64,000 nt of DNA from Minisyncoccota bacterium (GCA_025453495.1 JALOQM010000004.1:28990-92989), one strand, 5' to 3'; counted from the first letter of the stretch, positions 4,250 through 57,129 are shown. Translations and numbers: made by a program. The notes: generated by a model not told the origin, from the letters alone.

Positions 4250-6004
4250 TTATTGCTTACACACAAGCTCATTTATCTTTTTTGTTGTTGTGATATAGAC
4301 ATACCCTGTGCCTTCATTGAGCCCCCAAGAGCTAAGCACATCGGCTGTGTATGCTTCTTGAAAACGCTTGACTGCGGCATCAGTTGCAAGACCAAAGAAC
4401 CCTGTTGGTTGTATTGATAAGAAAGAATTTTTTAGCAAGAAGCTCTGTAACTTTGTAACCTCTGGACCTCTCGAACCAAGCCTCATATATGAAGTAAGAT
4501 ATGGTGCGCATGTATCTTGAGGTTCCACATATCCTGGAAGCTCTTTCGGATTTGTCGTAAATCCGCCAGCACCAGTATCAATCGGTGGAGGGGCTATACC
4601 AGTATCAGTTGGAGGTGTGACTAATGCTGGAGCAGATACTCCCTGTGCCATCGAGTCGCTATCTGCAGTAAAGCGAATTGTTTCTGAATTTGTGCCAGAA
4701 AGTCTGTAACCGATACCGGCAACAGTCAATGCGCCGTTAAGCATTTCGCCTTCACGAAGCGCGAGACCGACAAGCGAACCTGGACCATCTTCTCCAATTA
4801 CGACATCATTCATAAAATCGACATCAGTAATGACATAGTCAGTCACTCCAATAGTATTTGTTTTAACCGCTTTTACGACACCTTGTGTTGCACAAGCAGT
4901 TCCACTAACACAGCCCGAGGGACTAGTCGTCCATACAAGTGTATCAGCGACAACATCAGCCACAATTGACGGTGAAGCAACATAATCTAAATTTCCACCA
5001 TTTACACCACAAGTATGTACAGCTCGTAGAGTAAATGATTCATGGTCAGTGGTCGCATTATAAGATGCAAATGCAGGAGAAAAATCAATAACGCCATTAT
5101 CTGCTCTTACCTGAAAACTATTAGGTATAGTGGTAGCACCGCAATGGCTTGGAGAAATAGAGCCGAATTGCAGACTACCAGGAGAGCTACCATCAAGAAC
5201 AAGAGATACGACATCTGAATGATATCTTGTCGCGATATTTCCAAAACTATCATAAGCAGTAACCACGGGCTGTGTAGTCCACACCACACCACTTTGCACA
5301 TCACCATAAACTGGAGTCGGTGTCATGCTTGGTAGTGTAGTGAAACTAAGAGTTACTGCTTGACCTGGAATAATCGTAAAGGCATTATCGATAGCCTTAC
5401 CTGTAGAACCTCCACCCTTACCTGTTGCTGAATCATCAGATACAAATAATTCTTGCCCGATTATCCAAAGCTGAAGATTTCCGTCTTGTGAAGTAAAGCC
5501 ATCACCATCAAAAACAGCAGCAGTTTCAGGGTTGAAAATTATATTAAGAATACTAAAAGAAATTGTGTCTGAAACATCAACAGTACTTCCGTAATTAAAT
5601 GGAGCGGCAAGAGTGAGTTGTATTCTTGTACCTACAACTTCAACCAAAGAAACTTCTCGATCAGTACCATTTATAGAAATAAAACCACCTGAACCAATAT
5701 CTGATTGCACCACTTCTGTTGGATCAGCAATAAATGAACCATCAAGAGTAAATATATTTGGAAAATTAACAATAATCTTGGATGCTGTTCCAGTACTTGT
5801 TGTCGTATAAGATACTTCGTATTGCCCCGGTTCACCGACAATATCATCAGTACCAAGAGTTACTGGAGCGACTGTAGCAGTAGTTATTGATGCTTGCACC
5901 GAGTTCCGCCACACAAATCCACCCACAACAAGAGCAGTGATAATACCTACAATAGTGAGGGTATACACATTGTTGGAAATTTTTTTCTTGAGTATATTCA
6001 ACAT
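4250..6004 (-). CDS. Membrane-anchored cell-surface protein with C-terminal peptidoglycan-binding (PG_binding_1-like) domain
   Basis: 584 aa. N-terminal signal anchor, long Thr/Ser/Gly/Val-rich beta-type body. C-terminus LGSRGPEVTKLQSFLL...GFFGLATDAAVKRFQ matches the PG_binding_1 motif pattern. A terminator hairpin follows at 4195-4228. Confidence 0.6.
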   Translation of the reverse strand: MLNILKKKISNNVYTLTIVGIITALVVGGFVWRNSVQASITTATVAPVTLGTDDIVGEPGQYEVSYTTTSTGTASKIIVNFPNIFTLDGSFIADPTEVVQSDIGSGGFISINGTDREVSLVEVVGTRIQLTLAAPFNYGSTVDVSDTISFSILNIIFNPETAAVFDGDGFTSQDGNLQLWIIGQELFVSDDSATGKGGGSTGKAIDNAFTIIPGQAVTLSFTTLPSMTPTPVYGDVQSGVVWTTQPVVTAYDSFGNIATRYHSDVVSLVLDGSSPGSLQFGSISPSHCGATTIPNSFQVRADNGVIDFSPAFASYNATTDHESFTLRAVHTCGVNGGNLDYVASPSIVADVVADTLVWTTSPSGCVSGTACATQGVVKAVKTNTIGVTDYVITDVDFMNDVVIGEDGPGSLVGLALREGEMLNGALTVAGIGYRLSGTNSETIRFTADSDSMAQGVSAPALVTPPTDTGIAPPPIDTGAGGFTTNPKELPGYVEPQDTCAPYLTSYMRLGSRGPEVTKLQSFLLKNSFLSIQPTGFFGLATDAAVKRFQEAYTADVLSSWGLNEGTGYVYITTTKKINELVCKQ

Positions 6005-6146
6005 GATATTTTTTACTTTATGTTTTACTTATGAGTTATACTCAATATACTAGCATATGCTAATGAAAAGCGCATTTGTACAATACGTAGTATATATTCC
6101 GTACAAAAGGCGTATTTTAGTAGCATACAATACTGTATACTAGACA

Positions 6147-6542
6147 TTGCATAGAATTTCGGGGCATATTCTACGCATAAGTCTTGCGATTACCTTTATT
6201 TGGATTGCTAGTGTGATACTCAAATACCCAGAAGTCTGGGGTGAATATCTCAAGCCTTGGGCAATCGATCTCCCTCCCGCCTCCGTCGAAGCAACCATGC
6301 GTGCGACAGATATTGCTGATATCGTAATCGGCTTCTTGTTTCTTGTGCCGAGCATAGCGTGGGTTGCTGGTATTCTCGGTGTACTCCATATGCTTCTGGT
6401 TCTTGTGACATCGGGCATAACTGATATGACCGTAAGCAACATTGGACTACTTGGCGCGTCGGCTGCCATAGTCCTTGATTCACTTTCTTTTTTTATTCGA
6501 AAACGGCATAGTAGTAAAACTACTGCGACCCCCACCACATAA
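6147..6542 (+). CDS. Hypothetical small membrane protein
   Basis: 131 aa, three hydrophobic helices. Preferred over the antisense 6140-6577 ORF on hydrophobicity pattern only. Confidence 0.3.
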   Translation: MHRISGHILRISLAITFIWIASVILKYPEVWGEYLKPWAIDLPPASVEATMRATDIADIVIGFLFLVPSIAWVAGILGVLHMLLVLVTSGITDMTVSNIGLLGASAAIVLDSLSFFIRKRHSSKTTATPTT

Positions 6543-19164: not shown

Positions 19165-19590
19165 GTTTTGAGCCAGATAGTTGCTCTTTGATGTATATCA
19201 AAGAGAGGAAAGTCCGAACACATAACGATTCAATTCGTATAGGTAATGGGTAATTCCCATACGGAGCAATCCGCGAGGTGCGAGCAGAGACGCTTGCAAG
19301 CGAAAGTGCGCAAGCGTCCCGACTTCGGTCGGGACGAGTTCTCAAGGTAACTTGAGAGGTGAAACGGCTAAATCCTTACCCGTGTGCAAGGCCGTGTTCC
19401 CCACTACTTTAAACAGTTATATGAATACTCTATGTAGTAATGAAATAAAAATTATCGCATACGCATACTCACATAAGTTTTTAAAGTAGTGGGGAAAGTG
19501 CCGCTTGAGGCCGACGGCAACGTCGGTCCCAGATAAATGACTATCGTCTGGGTAACCAGATACAGAATTCGGCTTATAGGCTCAAAACTA
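19165..19590 (+). ncRNA. rnpB: RNase P RNA (bacterial type A-like)
   Basis: Universally conserved GGAAAGTCCGAACAC near the 5' end and ACAGAATTCGGCTTATAG near the 3' end. P1 pairing gttttgagcc (19165-19174) with ggctcaaaac (19579-19588). Contains an AT-rich extended hairpin insertion (ccccactacttta...taaagtagtgggg, about 19377-19500). Terminator hairpin at 19596-19626. Confidence 0.85.
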
Positions 19591-19595
19591 ACATG

Positions 19596-32154: not shown

Positions 32155-32227
32155 AGCCAATGGTCGGGATTGAACCGACGGCCCCCGCTTTACGAAAGCG
32201 GTGCTCTACCAACTGAGCTACATTGGC
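32155..32227 (-). tRNA. tRNA-Thr (anticodon CGT)
   Basis: Cloverleaf folded by hand: acceptor GCCAATG/CATTGGC, D-arm GCTC-AGTTGGTA-GAGC, anticodon stem CCGCT/AGCGG with loop TTCGTAA, T-arm GTCGG-TTCAATC-CCGAC. No encoded CCA. Confidence 0.85.
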
Positions 32228-36759: not shown

Positions 36760-36832
36760 AGCCAATGACCGGGATTGAACCGGTGACCTCGCCCTTACCA
36801 TGGGCGTGCTCTACCAACTGAGCTACATTGGC
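36760..36832 (-). tRNA. tRNA-Thr (anticodon GGT)
   Basis: Hand fold: acceptor GCCAATG/CATTGGC, anticodon stem CGCCC/GGGCG with loop ATGGTAA, T-arm ACCGG-TTCAATC-CCGGT. Shares its 5' half with the tRNA-Thr(CGT) at 32155-32227. Confidence 0.85.
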
Positions 36833-40042: not shown

Positions 40043-40116
40043 CGCGAGTGATGGGACTTGAACCCACGACCTTCCGCGTGACAGGCGGACGCTCTAACCA
40101 GCTGAGCTACACCCGC
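40043..40116 (-). tRNA. tRNA-Asp (anticodon GTC)
   Basis: Hand fold: acceptor GCGGGTG/CACTCGC, anticodon loop CTGTCAC, T-arm GTGGG-TTCAAGT-CCCAT, discriminator G. Confidence 0.85.
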
Positions 40117-40174
40117 AATTCTGGTTACTTTTCGAACATAGGCACTGTAGCAATTTTCGCGCCCATATTCAATG

Positions 40175-40248
40175 TGTCGGCGGGTGGAATCGAACCACCG
40201 ACCTTGGGCTTATGAGTCCCACGCTCTAACCGACTGAGCTACGCCGAC
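40175..40248 (-). tRNA. tRNA-Met (anticodon CAT), elongator type (G1-C72 paired)
   Basis: Hand fold: acceptor GTCGGCG/CGCCGAC, anticodon loop CTCATAA, T-arm GGTGG-TTCGATT-CCACC. Could alternatively be a lysidine-modified tRNA-Ile2. Confidence 0.75.
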
Positions 40249-40271
40249 ATATATGTATTTATCAAACCATG

Positions 40272-40343
40272 TTGCGGGGGCCGGATTCGAACCGACGATC
40301 TCAAGGTTATGAGCCTTGCGAGATACCACTTCTCCACCCCGCG
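40272..40343 (-). tRNA. Initiator tRNA-fMet (anticodon CAT)
   Basis: Acceptor CGCGGGG...CCCCGCA A with the C1:A72 mismatch diagnostic of bacterial initiator tRNA. T-arm GTCGGTTCGAATCCGGC almost identical to E. coli tRNA-fMet. Confidence 0.85.
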
Positions 40344-47244: not shown

Positions 47245-47784
47245 CTAAAATCTGATTGGCACTACAAATGTCCTTGGCGACTCGCCGGATGGATCAGTAT
47301 TTGTAAAGAGTAAATATCCAGTCGGCGTGCGTTGTGGTGGTGTGTGTATTGTCAGCCGTGTAGAAAACGTTGCTGGTAACTGCATCCAGTTTCCAGATAT
47401 AGAAAGAATTTCTGTCGAAGAAAGCGGATTGTCACGTGAATCAAAAACACGCACTGTCCCTGCTTGTCCTTCAAAAGGACCCCAGTTACAATCACCGGTG
47501 ATGTATCCTGACACATTGACTGTAGAAGATACTTGCTCATTTGGTGACGGTGCTGTCACTGTGATACCACACGTAGACGAGAGTACAGGGTTTGGTATTG
47601 GTGCAGAAATGGGGGGAACTATCGTAGGTATATTTGGTTTAACAGCTGGTGACGGTCTATCGCTATTTCCAAAAAGTGGCGACCTTTTTGTGTTACTGAA
47701 GTTGCCAATAGCCGCAAGCGCGATAAAGATACCGACAAAGATAAGTATTATTAGGATACTATTTGAACCACCGCCTTTTGACAT
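47245..47784 (-). CDS. Membrane-anchored hypothetical protein with Pro-rich linker and Ig-like C-terminal domain
   Basis: Start at MSKGGGSNSILIILIFVGIFIALAAIG (ATG at 47782-47784). Pro-rich PSPAVKPNIPTIVPPISAPIPNP, C-terminal beta-type domain (GYITGDCNWGPFEGQAGTVRVFD). Confidence 0.45.
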   Translation of the reverse strand: MSKGGGSNSILIILIFVGIFIALAAIGNFSNTKRSPLFGNSDRPSPAVKPNIPTIVPPISAPIPNPVLSSTCGITVTAPSPNEQVSSTVNVSGYITGDCNWGPFEGQAGTVRVFDSRDNPLSSTEILSISGNWMQLPATFSTRLTIHTPPQRTPTGYLLFTNTDPSGESPRTFVVPIRF

Positions 47785-47884
47785 AGAAAAAATGATTATT
47801 GGATAATGACTATATTGTAGCGCATTTACACAAAAGAAAAACCATCCTGTAATCAGGATGGTTTTTACGGTAAAGAGCAAAACA

Positions 47885-48664
47885 CTATACTTCTGCTTTC
47901 ATCTTGATTATAAACCTTAGCGAGATAAGTCGATAGTTGAGTACACCAACTACTGCGCCAATAACTGCAAATACAAGAATCTGTAGCATGTCAAAGTTTA
48001 GGATGTAACTCGTGATAGTCCCTGCTGATGCAAAGACAAAACACAAAAGTCGCTCATCGGAATACGTCAGAATGAAGAGATGTTTGAAGAATTTTCCGAA
48101 ACAAGAGACAGACCATACTATTCCCTTTCCGATTTCAGTTCTTTTTTTCCAAAGAAATCTGACGGTGTAGTAAGTAGCAAGTATCGGTGAAATAGTAAGC
48201 ATTGATAGCGGATTTGCATATTTCAACCAAAAACGACAATAGTTGTTATATTCTATATTTCTGTCAAATAGTGCCACAACCATGAGGAAAAAAAACACAA
48301 TAGCTACAAAGAAAAAGAAATTGAAAATGATAGGTAGAACTGCTCCAACGATTTCCAATTTCTGAGAACAAAAAGTACTTAAAAATAGATTGGCAACTCC
48401 GACAAAAAGAACATTTGCCAGAAATTTAAGAGTTACTATGATTCTTGCTTTTGTATTTTCATGTAAGCGCCAGCTGCTTACATGATTCCATGCTTTCGGA
48501 ACAGCGAGAATAATTGCTTTAATGTCGCATAAGAGATAAGCACTTACGCCACCAATGATGACACCAAGCCACCAAAAGTCTGTAGTAATCTTAGTCGCAA
48601 TGAGCGAACCTGTGAGGATACCCATGAAGATTGCGAGCATAATCCGGAGAGATTTCTTTTCCAT
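47885..48664 (-). CDS. Hypothetical polytopic membrane protein
   Basis: 259 aa with about 6-7 hydrophobic helices. No recognisable family. Confidence 0.45.
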   Translation of the reverse strand: MEKKSLRIMLAIFMGILTGSLIATKITTDFWWLGVIIGGVSAYLLCDIKAIILAVPKAWNHVSSWRLHENTKARIIVTLKFLANVLFVGVANLFLSTFCSQKLEIVGAVLPIIFNFFFFVAIVFFFLMVVALFDRNIEYNNYCRFWLKYANPLSMLTISPILATYYTVRFLWKKRTEIGKGIVWSVSCFGKFFKHLFILTYSDERLLCFVFASAGTITSYILNFDMLQILVFAVIGAVVGVLNYRLISLRFIIKMKAEV

Positions 48665-48805
48665 GCTATGTAATTGTTAAGTTACTGTTTTGAGTTTTAG
48701 AATTTGATTTTTCTAAAAGAGACTTTATCACGAAATATAGTTCTCGTCAACTAAAGCTACTCTCCTTGCGAAATCGACTTTACGTTATGCTTGCTTTTAT
48801 GAAAG

Positions 48806-48850
48806 GAAAAAACCTCCGTTCACTACTGAACGGAGGTTTCAAGATTTTTT
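48806..48850 (-). terminator. Rho-independent terminator
   Basis: aaaaaacctccgttcactactgaacggaggtttcaagatttttt seen directly. 3' of the gene 48849-49379. Confidence 0.55.
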
Positions 48851-49379
48851 ATACTACATATGTGAGTATCAAAGATAGAATCATGCAGGTATAACAAAAA
48901 ATTCTGCGTAAAATAACCTTCTTTTTTTCGATGGTAGTGGAGTGGGAAATAACAAAAACTGTGGCAAAAGCAATAGACATAGCGGCAATCAAGACACCTG
49001 ACATGAAAGCTGAGATACCAGCGATAAGAGTAAAAATAAAAGCAAAAAGAATAGCAACACCAGAGAACACATGCGCAAAATTATTTTTTCGCTTGTCTTT
49101 AAAAAGAAGAAATGCAGAAAAAAGCAAAACTGAAATAGGTACAAGTACCACATGCCAGGCGAATGCTGTTTTCTCGTCAGTTTCAAAAGAGCCTGTCACA
49201 TCAATATTTGAGCCACTCAAACGGATTCCCTGGTCATAAGCAGCTGTTATACCAAGATTACGCGACTGGCTTTTGGGTGCAACAACGATGTTGCCTTCGG
49301 TAGTCTGTTGTAAGTGGTTTTGGGCACTTACAACCATAGCAACACAAGTGCATGCAAGGAAAAGAAATATCTTTTTCAT
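48849..49379 (-). CDS. Hypothetical membrane protein with signal peptide
   Basis: 176 aa. Signal peptide MKKIFLFLACTCVAMVVSA, then 3-4 hydrophobic helices. Confidence 0.45.
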   Translation of the reverse strand: MKKIFLFLACTCVAMVVSAQNHLQQTTEGNIVVAPKSQSRNLGITAAYDQGIRLSGSNIDVTGSFETDEKTAFAWHVVLVPISVLLFSAFLLFKDKRKNNFAHVFSGVAILFAFIFTLIAGISAFMSGVLIAAMSIAFATVFVISHSTTIEKKKVILRRIFCYTCMILSLILTYVV

Positions 49380-49513
49380 GGCTTTTTTATTTAGTTTTTA
49401 TACACTGGTAACTTACCAGCGTGGCTTATTCTATTCTTAATAGAGCATATAAAATCTATCTAGTCAATACATAATACAACACCTCCCGAACGGGAGGTGT
49501 TTGACTACTTTCT

Positions 49514-50548
49514 CTATGCTATCGTATAGAGTCCGTTTTTGTTTTTCTTGAAATATTTTGGGTTCTGGAGATTAACGAGAATAGTATTCTTCTTGAGGAA
49601 ACGCTCTTTGAGGACACGATTGACGATACCGTCTTTTGACATTGGACCCTCTTTCTTGAGAATCTCTTTTATCACATCACGGACAACACCTGGCTTATAT
49701 CCCCAATCACGAAGTGCATAGTAGCCACGACCGACAAGCACGAAACGCTGATCTTTGATGAGTTCATTGTGACAGGTCGCGACATGCGTCTTTTTGCCAA
49801 AGGTATCGGTAATTGCTTTTGCAACTTCGCGGAAATGCATCGGAGAACCATGCTTTCGCATGATGAGATACGCATAGTCTTTGACACCACGAGTTTTTAC
49901 ATTTGATGAATCAGCCCTCCCCCACTCACCAAGTGGATTGCTATTGATACGCTTTGAGATCGAAAGCCAACGACGTGCAATTTCTTCGTTCTTGTATTCA
50001 GCAGCAACTCCTTTGAGTTCATTTATAAAACGATCAACGATATCTGGCTCTGAAACGAGTTCATCATCAGAAAGTGATTCATAGAGTTTCTTGAGTGTAA
50101 TATGGACACCGTCTGCAGTAGCACGATCGACACTCCACCGTGGTTTGAAATGTTCATCTTCTTTATGTTTCTCAAAAAAGTCATGCACAACAAGGTGTAG
50201 ATGTATATGATTTTGTGTACTTTCGTCTTTGGAAATAGAACCAAGAAGATCCTCTTCAGAAACAACACCGCCAAGCGAAGCGATATAGTCACGGAGCTCT
50301 TCAAATGCCTTCTGTTCTACTTTGAATGCTTCTGACTTTCTGATCGAAGTAAGAGCTGCATTTTCTATCTGGCGTACACGCTCACGTGTAATCCCGTATT
50401 TTTGACCGATAGCTTCGAGTGTCTTTCGTTCGAGATCATCACCAAGTCCAAAACGTCCGGAGATGACATCATAGGCACGGTCGTGCAGATCTGCAAGAAT
50501 CTTCTTGGTAGTCTGCTTTGGTTTAAAAGTTAATGTAATTGAAGGCAT
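49514..50548 (-). CDS. DNA-binding protein with N-terminal sigma-70 region-4 HTH and C-terminal HARE-HTH domain
   Basis: 344 aa. Residues about 20-75 GRFGLGDDLERKTLEAIGQKYGITRERVRQIENAAL match the sigma-70 region 4 consensus. C-terminus MHFREVAKAITDTFGKK...CHNELIKDQRFVLVGRGYYALRDW resembles the HARE-HTH domain of the RNA polymerase delta subunit. No sigma region 2. Confidence 0.5.
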   Translation of the reverse strand: MPSITLTFKPKQTTKKILADLHDRAYDVISGRFGLGDDLERKTLEAIGQKYGITRERVRQIENAALTSIRKSEAFKVEQKAFEELRDYIASLGGVVSEEDLLGSISKDESTQNHIHLHLVVHDFFEKHKEDEHFKPRWSVDRATADGVHITLKKLYESLSDDELVSEPDIVDRFINELKGVAAEYKNEEIARRWLSISKRINSNPLGEWGRADSSNVKTRGVKDYAYLIMRKHGSPMHFREVAKAITDTFGKKTHVATCHNELIKDQRFVLVGRGYYALRDWGYKPGVVRDVIKEILKKEGPMSKDGIVNRVLKERFLKKNTILVNLQNPKYFKKNKNGLYTIA

Positions 50549-50633
50549 TTTCGCTTGTACTAATTAATTTATTAAAATGGTCATATTTGCAGACTTCATA
50601 TTATCAGTTAATCAATAGATTGTCAACACTTTA

Positions 50634-52448
50634 TTAGTGAGCATCCTCTGTTTTTCTAGCTGCCTTAGCACGATCGGTTTCTGTAAGGTGTTTTTTGCGT
50701 AGACGGACACTCTTTGGAGTAATTTCGAGGTATTCATCATCAGCCATAGTCTCAAGACCTCGCTCAATAGAAAGTATATATGCCGGCTTCAGATAAATAG
50801 TCTCGTCAGACCCAGACGCACGCATGTTTGTCAGTTGCTTACCCTTGGTCGGATTGACAGCAAGTTCTTCGCCTTTGATCGAATCCCCGACCACCATACC
50901 TTCATAGACTTCCGTGCCTGGCTCGATGTACAGCGTGCCGCGCTCTTGTAGATTGCCAAGTGCAAATCCAAGTGCCTTGCCGGCTGCCATTGACGTCATG
51001 GATCCAGCCTCACGCTTCTTGACCTCTCCTGCATACGGATGAAAACCAATCACACGTGAAGACATGATGCCTTCGCCTTTGGTATCGACGACGAATTGTC
51101 CACGATACCCAAGGAGTCCGCGCGTTGGAATCTCAAAGACGAGACGTGTGATGCCATCCTTATCACGCATGTCTTTCATAACACCACGACGCTTGTTGAT
51201 CTTTTCGATAACAACACCAGAAGAGATACTTGGGACGTCGATGATAAGTTCTTCAAACGGTTCTAGTTTTCGTGTCCCAAGCGGAGTCGAGGGATCGCTT
51301 TCTGTTTTGATAATAACCTGCGGTTGAGATACTTGCAGTTCATAGCCTTCGCGACGCATATTCTCAAGGAGTATCGCGATATGCAATTCTCCACGACCAT
51401 AGACTTTGTAATGTTCACCAGAGAAATCTACTTTGAGACCGACATTGATCTCAAGTTCTTTTTCGAGTCGTTCGCGGATCTGACGACCAGTGACAAATTT
51501 ACCTTCACGTCCAGCAAATGGTGAATCATTTACGAGGAAGTTAAGAGAGATAGTCGGCTCATCGATATGGATTGACGGTAGTGGCATTGTCGATTCACTG
51601 TCGACAATAGTCTCGCCGATATAGATGTCTGGAATACCTGCAATCATACCAATGTCTCCAGCAGTAATCTCTGAAGAATCTTTTCTTGCAATACCTTCAA
51701 ACGTAAAAAGCTTTGTGATTTTACCAGTACGAGTATCGCCTTGTGCATTTTTTACTAGAATCTGCGCTCCTGATGCAATAGTGCCACCATAGACACGCAC
51801 GACTGCCATACGACCAAGGAAATTGTCATAGCCGAGATTAAAGACCTGCGCTGCAAATGGTTCTGTGCTCTTTGTCGAAGCAACTGGTACTTGCTCAAGG
51901 ACGACATCAAGAAGTGGTGAAAGATCTTTTGCATCATCAGTAAGCAAACGCTTAGCAATACCTTGGCGACCGATCGCATAGACAGTTGTGAAATCAAGCT
52001 GTGCATCATTTGCACCAAGCTCAAGGAAAAGCTCAAGTACTTCCTCGTGTACTTTGTCAGGATTGCCACCTGGTTTGTCGATCTTGTTTATAACCACAAT
52101 AGGCTTGAGTCCAAGCTCAAGTGACTTCTTGAGGACAAATCGCGTCTGTGGCATTGGACCTTCTTGCGCGTCGACAAGCAGAAGCACCGAGTCAATAGAA
52201 CGAAGCACGCGCTCAACTTCAGAACCGAAATCCGCGTGCCCAGGCGTATCAACAATGTTGATCTTTGTGTCTTTATAAAAAATAGAGGTGTTCTTCGAAT
52301 AGATAGTGATGCCGCGTTCTTGCTCAAGGGCGTTTGAGTCCATAGATACGCCTTCGGCGACCATACCGGTCTGACGCATCAATGCATCGGTCAAGGTAGT
52401 CTTGCCGTGGTCAACGTGCGCAATGATTGCAATGTTTCGTATGTCCAT
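50634..52448 (-). CDS. typA: Translational GTPase TypA/BipA
   Basis: 604 aa. [24 protein letters not shown]-motifs. EF-G-like domain order and C-terminal BipA-specific domain. Confidence 0.95.
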
Positions 52449-52959: not shown

Positions 52960-54057
52960 TTATTTTACAAGCTTCACAATATCGTGATAGGTCACAAGCA
53001 ACATGAGTGCGATAAGGAGGAAAAAGCCAACTGTATTTAGGGTGTTTGCAACTTTCGGCGTGATTGGAGAACCTTTAATCTTTTCTATAAGAAGGAAGAG
53101 AAGGCGACCACCATCAAGCGCTGGAAATGGCAGCAAATTGATGATAGCGAGATTTATAGAGATAACAGCAGTAAGCATCAAGAGATGGACAATACCAAAG
53201 TTATATGCATCGCCGACAACGCCGACAAGCCCAACTGGTCCTGTCACTTGTGTGAGATCAGCCTTACCAAGTACTGCATCACGAAGCAATGTCGCAAGAG
53301 AGACAGCTGTCTCGCCAGTCAACCTTGAGGTCAACAAGAAGCCTTTTGCAAGTGCTGTATGTACTGGAAGTTGCACTTTGCCGACCACATCAAGAGAAAC
53401 GCCGACTCCAGCTCGCCCATCAACTAACCCATCTTCTGGGACAAGGACAAGTGATTGGCGACTTCCTGCACGCTCGTATTCAACCAAAATATTTTTCCCG
53501 GCATTCTCGGCGACTGTTGTTTTGAATACTTCAATATCAGGATTTGTTATTTCTCCTGTTTGTGAATCAATAGCGACAATTCGATCACCGGCGATAAACC
53601 CAGCTCTGTCTGCAGGAGCACCTTCGACAACAGAAGTAATCGTAAGCATCGGCATTTCTTTGTATGAGAGTGATGAATCCACTGGACCAGAAGTCGGAAG
53701 TCCCGCCATAAATCCTGAAGAAATGAGGAGCCACGCGAGGATGAAATTAAAAGCAACACCAGCAAAGAGTACTGCCGCTTGGATATACTTTGGTTTCTTG
53801 ACCATACTACGTGCTGCATCAGGACCAGAGAGGGATTCGTCATCAGGATTTTCCCCAAAGATTTTTACAAAACCGCCAAATGGCAATAAGTTAAAAGAAT
53901 ACGTGGTCTCCCCTTTTTTGATACCAAAGAGTCTTGGTGGAAACCCAAAACCAAATTCATCGACACGTATACCAGAACGCTTGGCGACGATAAAATGCCC
54001 AAACTCATGGACAAGGACAAGGACCAATAGAATGATAAAAAATAGAAGGATATTCAT
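52960..54057 (-). CDS. rseP: RIP metalloprotease RseP (site-2 protease) with PDZ domain
   Basis: 365 aa. HEFGHFIVA zinc motif in TM1, central PDZ, C-terminal LDGG-type motif (ALDGGRLL). Confidence 0.9.
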   Translation of the reverse strand: MNILLFFIILLVLVLVHEFGHFIVAKRSGIRVDEFGFGFPPRLFGIKKGETTYSFNLLPFGGFVKIFGENPDDESLSGPDAARSMVKKPKYIQAAVLFAGVAFNFILAWLLISSGFMAGLPTSGPVDSSLSYKEMPMLTITSVVEGAPADRAGFIAGDRIVAIDSQTGEITNPDIEVFKTTVAENAGKNILVEYERAGSRQSLVLVPEDGLVDGRAGVGVSLDVVGKVQLPVHTALAKGFLLTSRLTGETAVSLATLLRDAVLGKADLTQVTGPVGLVGVVGDAYNFGIVHLLMLTAVISINLAIINLLPFPALDGGRLLFLLIEKIKGSPITPKVANTLNTVGFFLLIALMLLVTYHDIVKLVK

Positions 54058-54217
54058 AAGATATTAGTAGTTTGTATTTAGTATATAGTATTTTGCCTTC
54101 GTGTGGAGTACATCGTATTTTCTGAAATACTTGGTTGAGTGAGTTTTGTTTTTTTGGTTTAGAAAAACCGCACAAGCGAAACAACCCAAGGGCTTTTAGA
54201 AAATATGATGCGGGAAC

Positions 54218-56115: not shown

Positions 56116-57129
56116 TTATCTCTTACTAATGATTGTCTTTTTATATGTGTCGAGATGCTCGAGCGCGATACCGGTCCCTTTAGCGACACAATAGAGGGCG
56201 TCTTCGGCAAGCTTTGCCTTCACTCCAGTCTTTCTAAAAACGAGATCTGGGAGATTACGAAGCTGAGATGAACCACCAGTCATTATGATACCCTGATCAA
56301 TAATATCGGAAGCAAGTTCTGGAGGTGTCTCCTGTAGTACATCTTTGATCGCTTTGACCATTTGATGCAACTCTCTGTCGATTGCTTTGACTATTTCATT
56401 GGTTGAAACTTGAGCAGTTCGCGGCAAACCTTGGATGTAGTCACGTCCTTTGATTGTCATGACGAATTCTTCTTCAAGTGGAATTGCAGCACCAATCTTT
56501 ATTTTTACAAGTTCTGCAGTCTTGTCGCCAATTGCGAGATTGAATGTCTTTTTGATGTAGTCGGCAATTGCTTGGTCTATTTTGTTACCCGCGACTTTGA
56601 CGGAGGTGGAAGCGACAATACCACCAAGCGAGATCACTGCGACGTCAGTGGTGCCACCACCAATATCGACAACCATGTGTCCCTTTGATTCATAAATTGG
56701 GATACCTGCGCCGATCGCGGCAAGAATTGGTTCCTTCACAACGTATGCATTTTTTGCACCTGCTTTGATAGCAGCTTCGACAACTGCGCGTCGTTCTGTT
56801 GACGTCACGCCCGCAGGAACGGAGACCATTACATCCGGTTTCCAGAGGTGCCACTTACCAAGCGCTTTGGTGATGAAATACCGAAGCATTGCTTCGGTGA
56901 CGCGATAGTCAGCAATCACGCCGTCTTTCATCGGACGGTATGCGACGATTGAGTCTGGGGTTTTGCCAATCATTTCCTTGGCATCAGCGCCAATAGCGAG
57001 TATTTTGTTGTCTTGCATCGAAACTGCAACAACTGATGGTTCATTGAGTACTACGCCTTTGCCAGGCAAATAGACGAGGGTATTTGCTGTGCCAAGATCG
57101 ATGCCGAGTTTTTTCGTAAAAATGCCCAT
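56116..57129 (-). CDS. mreB: Rod shape-determining protein MreB
   Basis: 337 aa. Actin-fold phosphate-1 motif GIDLGTANTLVY, adenosine motif and connect motifs. Confidence 0.95.
   Translation of the reverse strand: MGIFTKKLGIDLGTANTLVYLPGKGVVLNEPSVVAVSMQDNKILAIGADAKEMIGKTPDSIVAYRPMKDGVIADYRVTEAMLRYFITKALGKWHLWKPDVMVSVPAGVTSTERRAVVEAAIKAGAKNAYVVKEPILAAIGAGIPIYESKGHMVVDIGGGTTDVAVISLGGIVASTSVKVAGNKIDQAIADYIKKTFNLAIGDKTAELVKIKIGAAIPLEEEFVMTIKGRDYIQGLPRTAQVSTNEIVKAIDRELHQMVKAIKDVLQETPPELASDIIDQGIIMTGGSSQLRNLPDLVFRKTGVKAKLAEDALYCVAKGTGIALEHLDTYKKTIISKR

Follow-up and report, generated by a model that had tools for sequence, protein, structure and literature searches.

A conserved protein of the candidate phyla radiation joins a sigma-70 region 4 to four HARE-type winged helices and is a candidate -35-reading DNA-binding factor

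Introduction

The DNA-reading part of a housekeeping sigma factor has a counterpart in WhiA, whose helix-turn-helix (HTH) at the C-terminus mimics region 4 of sigma-A on a GACAC motif and which occurs well beyond the Actinobacteria, for example in Thermotoga maritima (PMC10243135). A second module, the HARE-HTH winged helix, is known from the delta subunit of RNA polymerase (RNAP), which in Bacillus subtilis binds the enzyme between the beta-prime shelf and the jaw (PMC7749165). Here, we describe a gene whose product combines both modules. It lies at positions 49514-50548 on the minus strand of a 64,000-nucleotide stretch of DNA from a Minisyncoccota bacterium (GCA_025453495.1, JALOQM010000004.1:28990-92989; the whole stretch is referred to as the window). 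The protein belongs to a family of the candidate phyla radiation (CPR), or Patescibacteria, a huge and mostly uncultured bacterial branch with tiny genomes. Our best reading is that it would be a sigma-4-derived, sequence-specific DNA-binding factor analogous to WhiA rather than a subunit of RNAP. More tentatively, and with a probability of roughly 40%, we propose that it is a regulator which reads or occludes -35 elements and is functionally tied to a membrane-protein module encoded next to it in most related loci.

Results

Domain composition

The gene starts with an ATG codon at 50548 and ends with a stop codon at 49514-49516 on the minus strand, exactly as in the original prediction, which had been made from the DNA sequence alone. 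It codes for a protein of 344 amino acids (aa), which is identical to a database entry (P0001) named 'HTH domain-containing protein' from a Candidatus Pacebacteria metagenome-assembled genome. Its parts are, in window coordinates:

49514..50548, minus strand: whole open reading frame (ORF), 344 aa, with sigma region 4 ahead of a tandem array of four HARE-type winged helices (sequence, Pfam, AlphaFold2)
50318..50527, minus strand: sigma-70 region 4 domain (4.1 and 4.2), aa 8-77
50363..50389, minus strand: recognition helix TRERVRQIE, aa 54-62, aligned with T583-E591 of Escherichia coli sigma-70
50126..50317, minus strand: winged helix 1 (WH1), aa 78-141, slightly acidic (AlphaFold2, hhalign)
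49907..50125, minus strand: winged helix 2 (WH2), aa 142-214 (AlphaFold2, hhalign)
49697..49894, minus strand: winged helix 3 (WH3), aa 219-284, a bona fide HARE-HTH domain (Pfam, AlphaFold2)
49517..49693, minus strand: winged helix 4 (WH4), aa 286-344, a divergent HARE-HTH copy (hhalign, weak profile matches)

The Pfam model Sigma70_r4 matched aa 18-71 (E 7.6e-13, 48.2 bits, gathering score 24.1), in agreement with the N-terminal region 4 that had been predicted. HARE-HTH matched with E 3.4e-10 and 40.6 bits (gathering score 25.9); this domain had been placed in the last ~80 aa and is indeed present, but the significant match lies at aa 222-282. No Pfam match to Sigma70_r2 or Sigma70_r3 was found in the protein at E<=10, and the NCBIfam models for RpoD, RpoS and SigA aligned via their last ~60 positions only, with 40-54 bits against cutoffs of 350-800. 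When the single protein was searched against PDB sequences, the matches were confined to regions 4.1-4.2 of group-1/2 sigma factors. A profile of 127 diverse family members likewise aligned with one stretch per full-length sigma chain, namely 4.1 and 4.2 (E ~7e-20), and with neither region 2 nor region 3 of these structures. The claim that region 2 is missing therefore withstood a sensitive profile search. In the reverse direction, CPR RpoD compared with all ORFs of the window matched solely aa ~11-74 of the 344-aa protein, its region 4. With regions 2 and 3 absent and region 4 at the N-terminus, the gene product is a non-sigma protein, and a canonical or alternative sigma factor is ruled out.

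Conservation of the -35-reading residues

Region 4 of the 127 family members was compared column by column, in E. coli numbering, with that of 67 diverse RpoD proteins (loci L014-L080). Conserved to at least 80% in both sets were L551, R554, R562, G564, T572, L573, G577, T583, R584, E585, R586, R588, Q589, I590 and E591, a set that comprises the HTH core together with all residues known to contact the -35 element. The -35 contact positions R554, R562, T572, L573, T583, R584, E585, R586, R588 and Q589, of which Campbell et al. 2002 reportedly give a fuller list, are at least 87% conserved in the family, and conservation of the recognition-helix residues T54, R55, E56, R57, R59, Q60 and I61 is 94-100% both in the family (127 members) and in the 67 RpoD proteins. 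In sigma-70, R584 contacts position -31 and E585 position -33, and suppressor genetics implicates R588 at -33 (PMC2613000).

A different picture emerged for P531, L540, E542, E555, E575, K593, K597, H600, P601, R603, L607 and L611, which are conserved in RpoD yet not in the family. Seven of these, E555, K593, K597, H600, R603, L607 and L611, reach 81-100% in the RpoD set versus at most 42% in the family; the 593-603 patch is what we take to be the activator-contact surface of RpoD. For L607, the double substitution R541C+L607P serves to disrupt the contact that region 4 makes with the beta flap (bioRxiv 10.1101/2022.01.24.477500). The pattern says that selection probably kept DNA reading while releasing the RpoD-specific protein-contact surfaces, and the sequence evidence leans away from a canonical docking on RNAP.

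Winged-helix array and predicted structure

An AlphaFold2 model built from the 127-sequence alignment has a mean predicted local distance difference test (pLDDT) value of 97.3, with values of at least 90 at 341 of the 344 residues, a predicted template modelling score of 0.88 and no disordered segment. After the helices of region 4 (aa 10-77) come four units, each built as helix-helix-helix-hairpin, which span aa 78-141, 142-214, 219-284 and 286-344; WH1, for instance, consists of helices at aa 79-91, 98-105 and 109-121 and strands at aa 95-97, 126-128 and 137-139. Comparison of the units, cut from the family alignment, with hhalign related WH3 to WH4 (probability 92%, E 7e-7), WH2 to WH4 (89%), WH1 to WH2 (87%) and WH1 to WH4 (67%), and none of the four to region 4. 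From the modelled units and their kinship it follows that the protein is built of region 4 and, behind it, four HARE-type winged helices. The C-terminal winged-helix fold that had been proposed is thus borne out by the model, but as four tandem copies and not as one.

WH3 scores above the gathering cutoff of HARE-HTH (PF05066) and has a winged-helix fold in the model. It is the best conserved part of the protein (QTVHNELIKDxRFVLVGRGxYAL), and N261, L263, G273, G275 and Y277 are invariant across the family. Scanned alone, the last 60 aa behave as a weaker second copy (HARE-HTH E 0.11, DUF3320 E 7.8e-4). The family median net charge is +5 for region 4, -2 for WH1, +1 for WH2 and +5 for both WH3 and WH4. 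The sole acidic stretch, aa 76-220 (pI 5.4), is folded in the model, and the C-terminal domains are basic.

In a phmmer search, helix 2 of WH1 (VSEEDLLGSI, aa 96-105, window 50233-50262) aligned with TPEERLLRAI, the beta-flap-tip helix of 7kuf_B, a PDB chimera of sigma-A region 4 and the flap tip; the family consensus at this place is GGxxxExxLL. We set aside the idea of an intramolecular flap-tip mimic as less probable, as the likeness is probably a generic HARE-HTH helix-2 pattern that is also present in WH3 and WH4.

Foldseek searches of the PDB with the model returned two classes of matches. The first is sigma-A region 4, which superposes over 70-80 residues with a root-mean-square deviation (rmsd) of 1.4-2.6 A and is 36-44% identical; the second comprises tandem winged-helix proteins, namely the SelB C-terminus, UFL1/DDRGK1, Dcc1 and RPC62. 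Since the top matches include the four-winged-helix array of SelB (1lva, 5lzb), one might speculate that the protein is an RNA-binding or translation-linked factor that places its winged helices on structured RNA, and the local neighbours typA, frr and rseP, with translation genes nearby, could be seen in the same light. We regard this as very improbable. The template modelling score of the SelB match is ~0.2 and its rmsd ~17 A, and only the tandem winged-helix topology is therefore shared; in addition, the adjacency to typA is lineage-specific and the retained sigma -35-reading head points to double-stranded DNA.

The domain composition also led to the idea, put forward in the original prediction, of an RNAP accessory subunit. 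Such a subunit would sit with region 4 on the beta-flap tip, replacing region 4 of sigma-A or binding after its release, and with a HARE winged helix on the beta-prime shelf and jaw as in delta, and would modulate initiation or recycling. Region 4 is 35-44% identical to that of SigA, including helix 4.1 and the C-terminal helix, and WH3 is nearest in sequence to Staphylococcus aureus delta (8x6g_E, 24% identity), with a match to the delta model TIGR04567 that remains below threshold. The N-terminal domain of delta is a HARE-HTH known to bind RNAP (PMC7749165), and the high conservation and housekeeping context of our family would suit a protein of the core machinery. We nevertheless consider an accessory subunit less likely than our main reading, though a live rival to it: positions that are conserved in RpoD and are not used for DNA reading, L607 among them, are not conserved, the acidic disordered tail of delta is absent, and the strongest constraint lies on DNA-reading residues, which would be needless for pure docking on RNAP. 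Moreover, the conserved neighbour described below is a secretion-type membrane protein and no transcription gene.

Distribution of the family

A word-index search gave at least 8000 matches. The best 120 are 340-346 aa long, 68-100% identical and all carry both Pfam domains; their sources are Candidatus Pacebacteria, Paceibacterota, Nomurabacteria and the Patescibacteria group. At NCBI they go by the names 'hypothetical protein', 'HTH domain-containing protein' or 'sigma factor-like helix-turn-helix DNA-binding protein', and the miscall as sigma-70 that had been foreseen for automated annotation was not seen among these names. When the non-sigma part (aa 75-344) was compared with 1.84 billion cluster representatives, 417 clusters, counted at 50% identity, matched at E<=1e-30 and 792 at E<=1e-10. 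Almost all of the matching clusters are 320-400 aa long with a match beginning at residue ~75-85, and region 4 is present at the N-terminus of 126 of the 127 full-length representatives, i.e. the architecture is fixed.

In a scan of one genome per species, full-length copies were found, among the matches listed, only in CPR lineages (Paceibacterota, Kaiserbacteria, Doudnabacteria, Peregrinibacteria and the Parcubacteria group); the remaining matches listed are region 4 of ordinary RpoD. The CPR RpoD genes from the same scan contain a complete region 2. As CPR genomes thus keep a normal RpoD, the family is an addition to the housekeeping sigma factor and not a replacement for it. The conservation of ~70% identity across many genera, in organisms with tiny genomes, indicates that the protein is likely important.

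Just one of 2.9 million viral contigs carries a relative, which together with the housekeeping flanks rules out a phage or mobile-element gene. This relative (L161, IMGVR_UViG_3300006302_000097, 6001-6423) is 43% identical over the C-terminal half; it could stem from a CPR contig that was misclassified or be a rare copy carried by a phage. Three rare variants were seen among the cluster representatives, all from outside the window: P0213 has an extra C-terminal DnaA domain-IV HTH, P0152 is fused to SecF, probably by read-through from the upstream gene, and in P0124 an AAA_14 ATPase replaces region 4 and WH1-2. As single representatives that are probably gene-call read-throughs or chimeras, they are uninformative as Rosetta-stone fusions.

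Conserved gene neighbourhood

For the neighbourhood, we compared 13 loci from genomes with 80 from metagenomes, which had been retrieved by means of a C-terminal alignment specific to the family. The gene upstream is variable (leuS in 27, typA in 26, secF in 5, rseP in 2 and another gene in 2 of 62 loci). It had been noted that the gene is next to typA; this holds here and in close relatives but not in the majority of the loci, and because at least four arrangements occur upstream, of which this is one, typA is ruled out as a functional neighbour.

Despite the varying flanks, the same gene, here called MEM, follows directly downstream on the same strand in 75 of the 80 loci in which the sequence extends far enough; from the stop codon of our gene to the first downstream ATG, the median distance is 77 bp. 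MEM proteins have ~400-550 aa, an N-terminal hydrophobic anchor and a fold like that of the VirB4 N-terminal domain. They gave no match in Pfam or NCBIfam model searches and carry a precomputed PF26449 tag. A component of a defence system was considered and rejected: for our protein, PADLOC gave no more than a match to the region 4 portion of MzaA (29 bits), and for MEM it returned nothing.

Split sigma factors exist in Bacillus, and a region 4 without region 2 could accordingly be one half of a two-subunit sigma of the SigO-RsoA type, with region 2 supplied by a separate small protein. We give next to no credence to this explanation, as no region-2-like ORF is adjacent in the window or in the 93 related loci, the constant neighbour being VirB4-like instead. 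In addition, the CPR RpoD search of the window ORFs retrieved nothing besides the region 4 described here, and the 270-aa winged-helix array is without counterpart in SigO.

The gene after MEM is yceG/mltG in 45 and a VirD4/TrwB-like ATPase in 8 of 55 loci. The ATPase has its Walker A motif at residue ~37, is devoid of transmembrane (TM) segments, has a disordered tail and, at the C-terminus, a CxxC-x17-CxxC zinc ribbon, and has TrwB as its closest solved relative. It was located at L006:8394-10151, L007:8896-10725, L008:5550-7274 and L010:8513-10405, and also in L099, L156 and L158; its surroundings are housekeeping genes, with no other type IV secretion system (T4SS) genes in view, although relaxase and T4SS genes were not searched for systematically. 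In Patescibacteria, 5,713 VirD4 homologues have been counted in 2,918 genomes, 148 of them near virB4, and exaptation has been raised (PMC12102498). The ATPases found after MEM fit the orphan type IV coupling protein class of that study, and MEM and the VirD4-like ATPase could form a split VirB4/VirD4-like motor.

One might therefore imagine a DNA-recognition adaptor of a membrane DNA-translocation motor, which would bind specific DNA and pass it to MEM and the TM-less ATPase for DNA uptake, export or segregation. It would resemble relaxosome accessory proteins that work with coupling proteins, or the winged helix of FtsK gamma that reads FtsK-orienting polar sequences. We see this as a live rival too, about as probable as the accessory subunit and less so than our main reading. 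Against it, the ATPase adjoins in a minority of the loci only, the flanks showed no relaxase or other T4SS genes, although these were not searched for systematically, and the adjacency fits simple regulation equally well. In the window, moreover, the gene is a single unit between a promoter and a terminator of its own, with no MEM or ATPase gene within 64 kb. Less probable still is a more far-reaching version, in which this protein, MEM and the orphan ATPase would make up a chromosomal three-part housekeeping machine of Patescibacteria. Region 4 would here be exapted as a reader of TTGACA-like sites that loads DNA into, or directs it to, a translocation motor derived from type IV secretion, for example for DNA uptake, export or segregation in host-dependent cells; we would rate both the machine and this task for it as improbable.

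Genomic context in the window

In the window, the gene is flanked by typA/bipA (50634-52448) on one side and by three small unrelated ORFs and then gyrB on the other. Three features border it:

50598..50626, minus strand: promoter-like site TTGACA-17 nt-TAATAT with a TG (extended -10), in the 85-bp gap between typA and the ORF, ending 50 nt before the ATG
49478..49501, minus strand: terminator-like hairpin ACACCTCCCG-TTCG-CGGGAGGTGT, 10 bp and GC-rich, beginning 13 nt past the stop codon
49380..49513, no strand: synteny breakpoint; relatives continue with MEM (VirB4-N-terminal-domain-like), the window has unrelated small ORFs

CPR promoters follow the consensus TTGACA-17-TATAAT. An exact TTGACA is present within 160 nt upstream of the gene in 33 of 83 related loci, against ~4 expected by shuffling. 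The protein would thus encounter this motif at promoters, that of its own gene among them.

Synteny with the closest relatives covers a 337-aa ORF (56116-57129), a holB-like gene, frr, rseP, typA and the gene itself, and breaks right after its stop codon. None of MEM, yceG, the VirD4-like ATPase, leuS, secDF and rpoD was found within the 64-kb window, and in this setting the gene evidently works as a stand-alone, trans-acting unit. The three small ORFs lie on the minus strand at 47245-49379, where relatives have MEM-yceG; those of 176 aa and 259 aa have predicted TM segments and no family, and the one of 211 aa has a weak Gmad2 immunoglobulin-like match. A divergent MEM hidden among the 176- and 259-aa TM ORFs was rejected, as a hidden Markov model of 12 MEM sequences gave its best hit (E 0.029) on an unrelated ORF. 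A strong bidirectional hairpin is present at 48809-48840.

Elsewhere in the window, we observed a bacterial class A RNase P RNA at 19165-19592 (plus strand, 148.8 bits) and five tRNA genes at 32155-32227, 36760-36832 and 40043-40343 (minus strand), three of them clustered at 40043-40343. A 354-aa ORF at 53003-54067 (plus strand) is antisense to rseP (M50 peptidase) and spans nearly all of it; its composition, rich in Pro, Ser, Thr and Arg, is typical of a shadow ORF and not of a gene.

Discussion

We propose that the N-terminal domain of this protein derives from a copy of a housekeeping sigma region 4 with a complete -35-reading head. As this head has been kept whole, TTGACA-like hexamers should be recognised. 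With the RpoD-specific surfaces lost and no region 2, the protein cannot open promoters and is unlikely to occupy the beta flap in the manner of a sigma factor. The basic and very conserved WH3 and WH4 would probably lie on adjacent DNA and extend the contact, and the neutral to acidic WH1 and WH2 would more likely serve as a spacer or for docking to a protein. In this way, -35 elements could be occluded or marked by the protein, plausibly including its own consensus TTGACA promoter, and the conserved partner or target would be the membrane-anchored MEM encoded downstream, plus the VirD4-like ATPase in some lineages.

Several observations weigh against this proposal. The set of residues that we take to contact the flap is partly assumed, R541C/L607P alone being documented. 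An isolated sigma region 4 binds DNA weakly, and its specificity may differ in the present context. Furthermore, ~70% identity across many genera exceeds what is usual for a local regulator, and, with no copy of the presumed partner or target gene in the 64 kb of the window, linkage in cis is not obligatory. Finally, the HARE-HTH of delta binds RNAP and not DNA (PMC7749165).

None of the component domains is new, and databases already list the family, though under uninformative names. We found no description of the region 4 plus HARE architecture in the CPR literature covered, which did not include the founding paper on HARE-HTH (Aravind & Iyer 2012); the fixed combination of region 4 with four HARE winged helices, its apparent restriction to the CPR and its tight linkage to a VirB4-N-terminal-domain-like protein appear undescribed. 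The family deserves its own annotation model, so that its members are neither called 'hypothetical' nor counted as sigma factors. Should the sigma-A -35-reading head indeed be reused outside a sigma factor, this would offer a handle on promoter-level regulation in the CPR, where control of transcription is barely known. Similarly, the near-obligate linkage to a VirB4-like protein, joined in some lineages by an orphan VirD4-like ATPase, is a lead on the role of the thousands of Patescibacteria VirD4-like ATPases that are far from virB4 (PMC12102498). We regard the family as a well-defined lead and not as a demonstrated new mechanism.

As for known systems, T4SS substrate-recognition or relaxosome accessory proteins are encoded with a coupling protein, a relaxase and oriT on a transfer module. 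In our loci, the VirD4-like ATPase follows MEM in 8 of 55, and the flanks are of the housekeeping type, with the limit on the search for relaxase and T4SS genes given above. A region-4 protein encoded directly upstream of a membrane-anchored protein is reminiscent of the pairs of extracytoplasmic function (ECF) sigma and single-pass anti-sigma factors. Unlike in ECF pairs, however, region 2 is missing, and MEM has a VirB4-like fold with its TM segment at the extreme N-terminus and no N-terminal anti-sigma domain. The tandem arrays of the SelB C-terminus, UFL1/DDRGK1, Dcc1 and RPC62 of Pol III, each with 3-4 head-to-tail winged helices, are the best whole-chain Foldseek matches and share the topology alone (template modelling score ~0.2, 9-13% identity), with no sign of common descent or function.

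Delta (RpoE) of Bacillota has ~170 aa, with one N-terminal HARE-HTH and a long acidic disordered tail (PMC7749165), whereas the present protein combines a sigma region 4 with four winged helices and lacks a disordered tail. The RNAP delta model TIGR04567 gave 33.7 bits, below its cutoff of 42, and with this score, the lack of an acidic tail and the different architecture, we reject a delta orthologue. Compared with RpoD/SigA, region 4 is N-terminal, is not preceded by regions 1.2-3 and is followed by 270 aa of winged helices, and the surface residues E555, K593, K597, H600, R603, L607 and L611 have not been conserved.

The nearest functional precedent is WhiA, in that a sigma-4-type HTH would be reused in a widely conserved factor outside the sigma family, which binds DNA and reads a -35-like motif. 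The scaffolds differ, as that of WhiA is an N-terminal domain like the LAGLIDADG homing endonucleases and that of our protein consists of four HARE winged helices; a WhiA-type LAGLIDADG domain with C-terminal HTH gave no Pfam or NCBIfam match in the 344-aa protein, so the likeness is one of analogy only. The HTH is C-terminal in WhiA and N-terminal here, where the likeness to RpoD region 4 is readily detectable by both the Pfam model and the family profile; WhiA was compared by its description.
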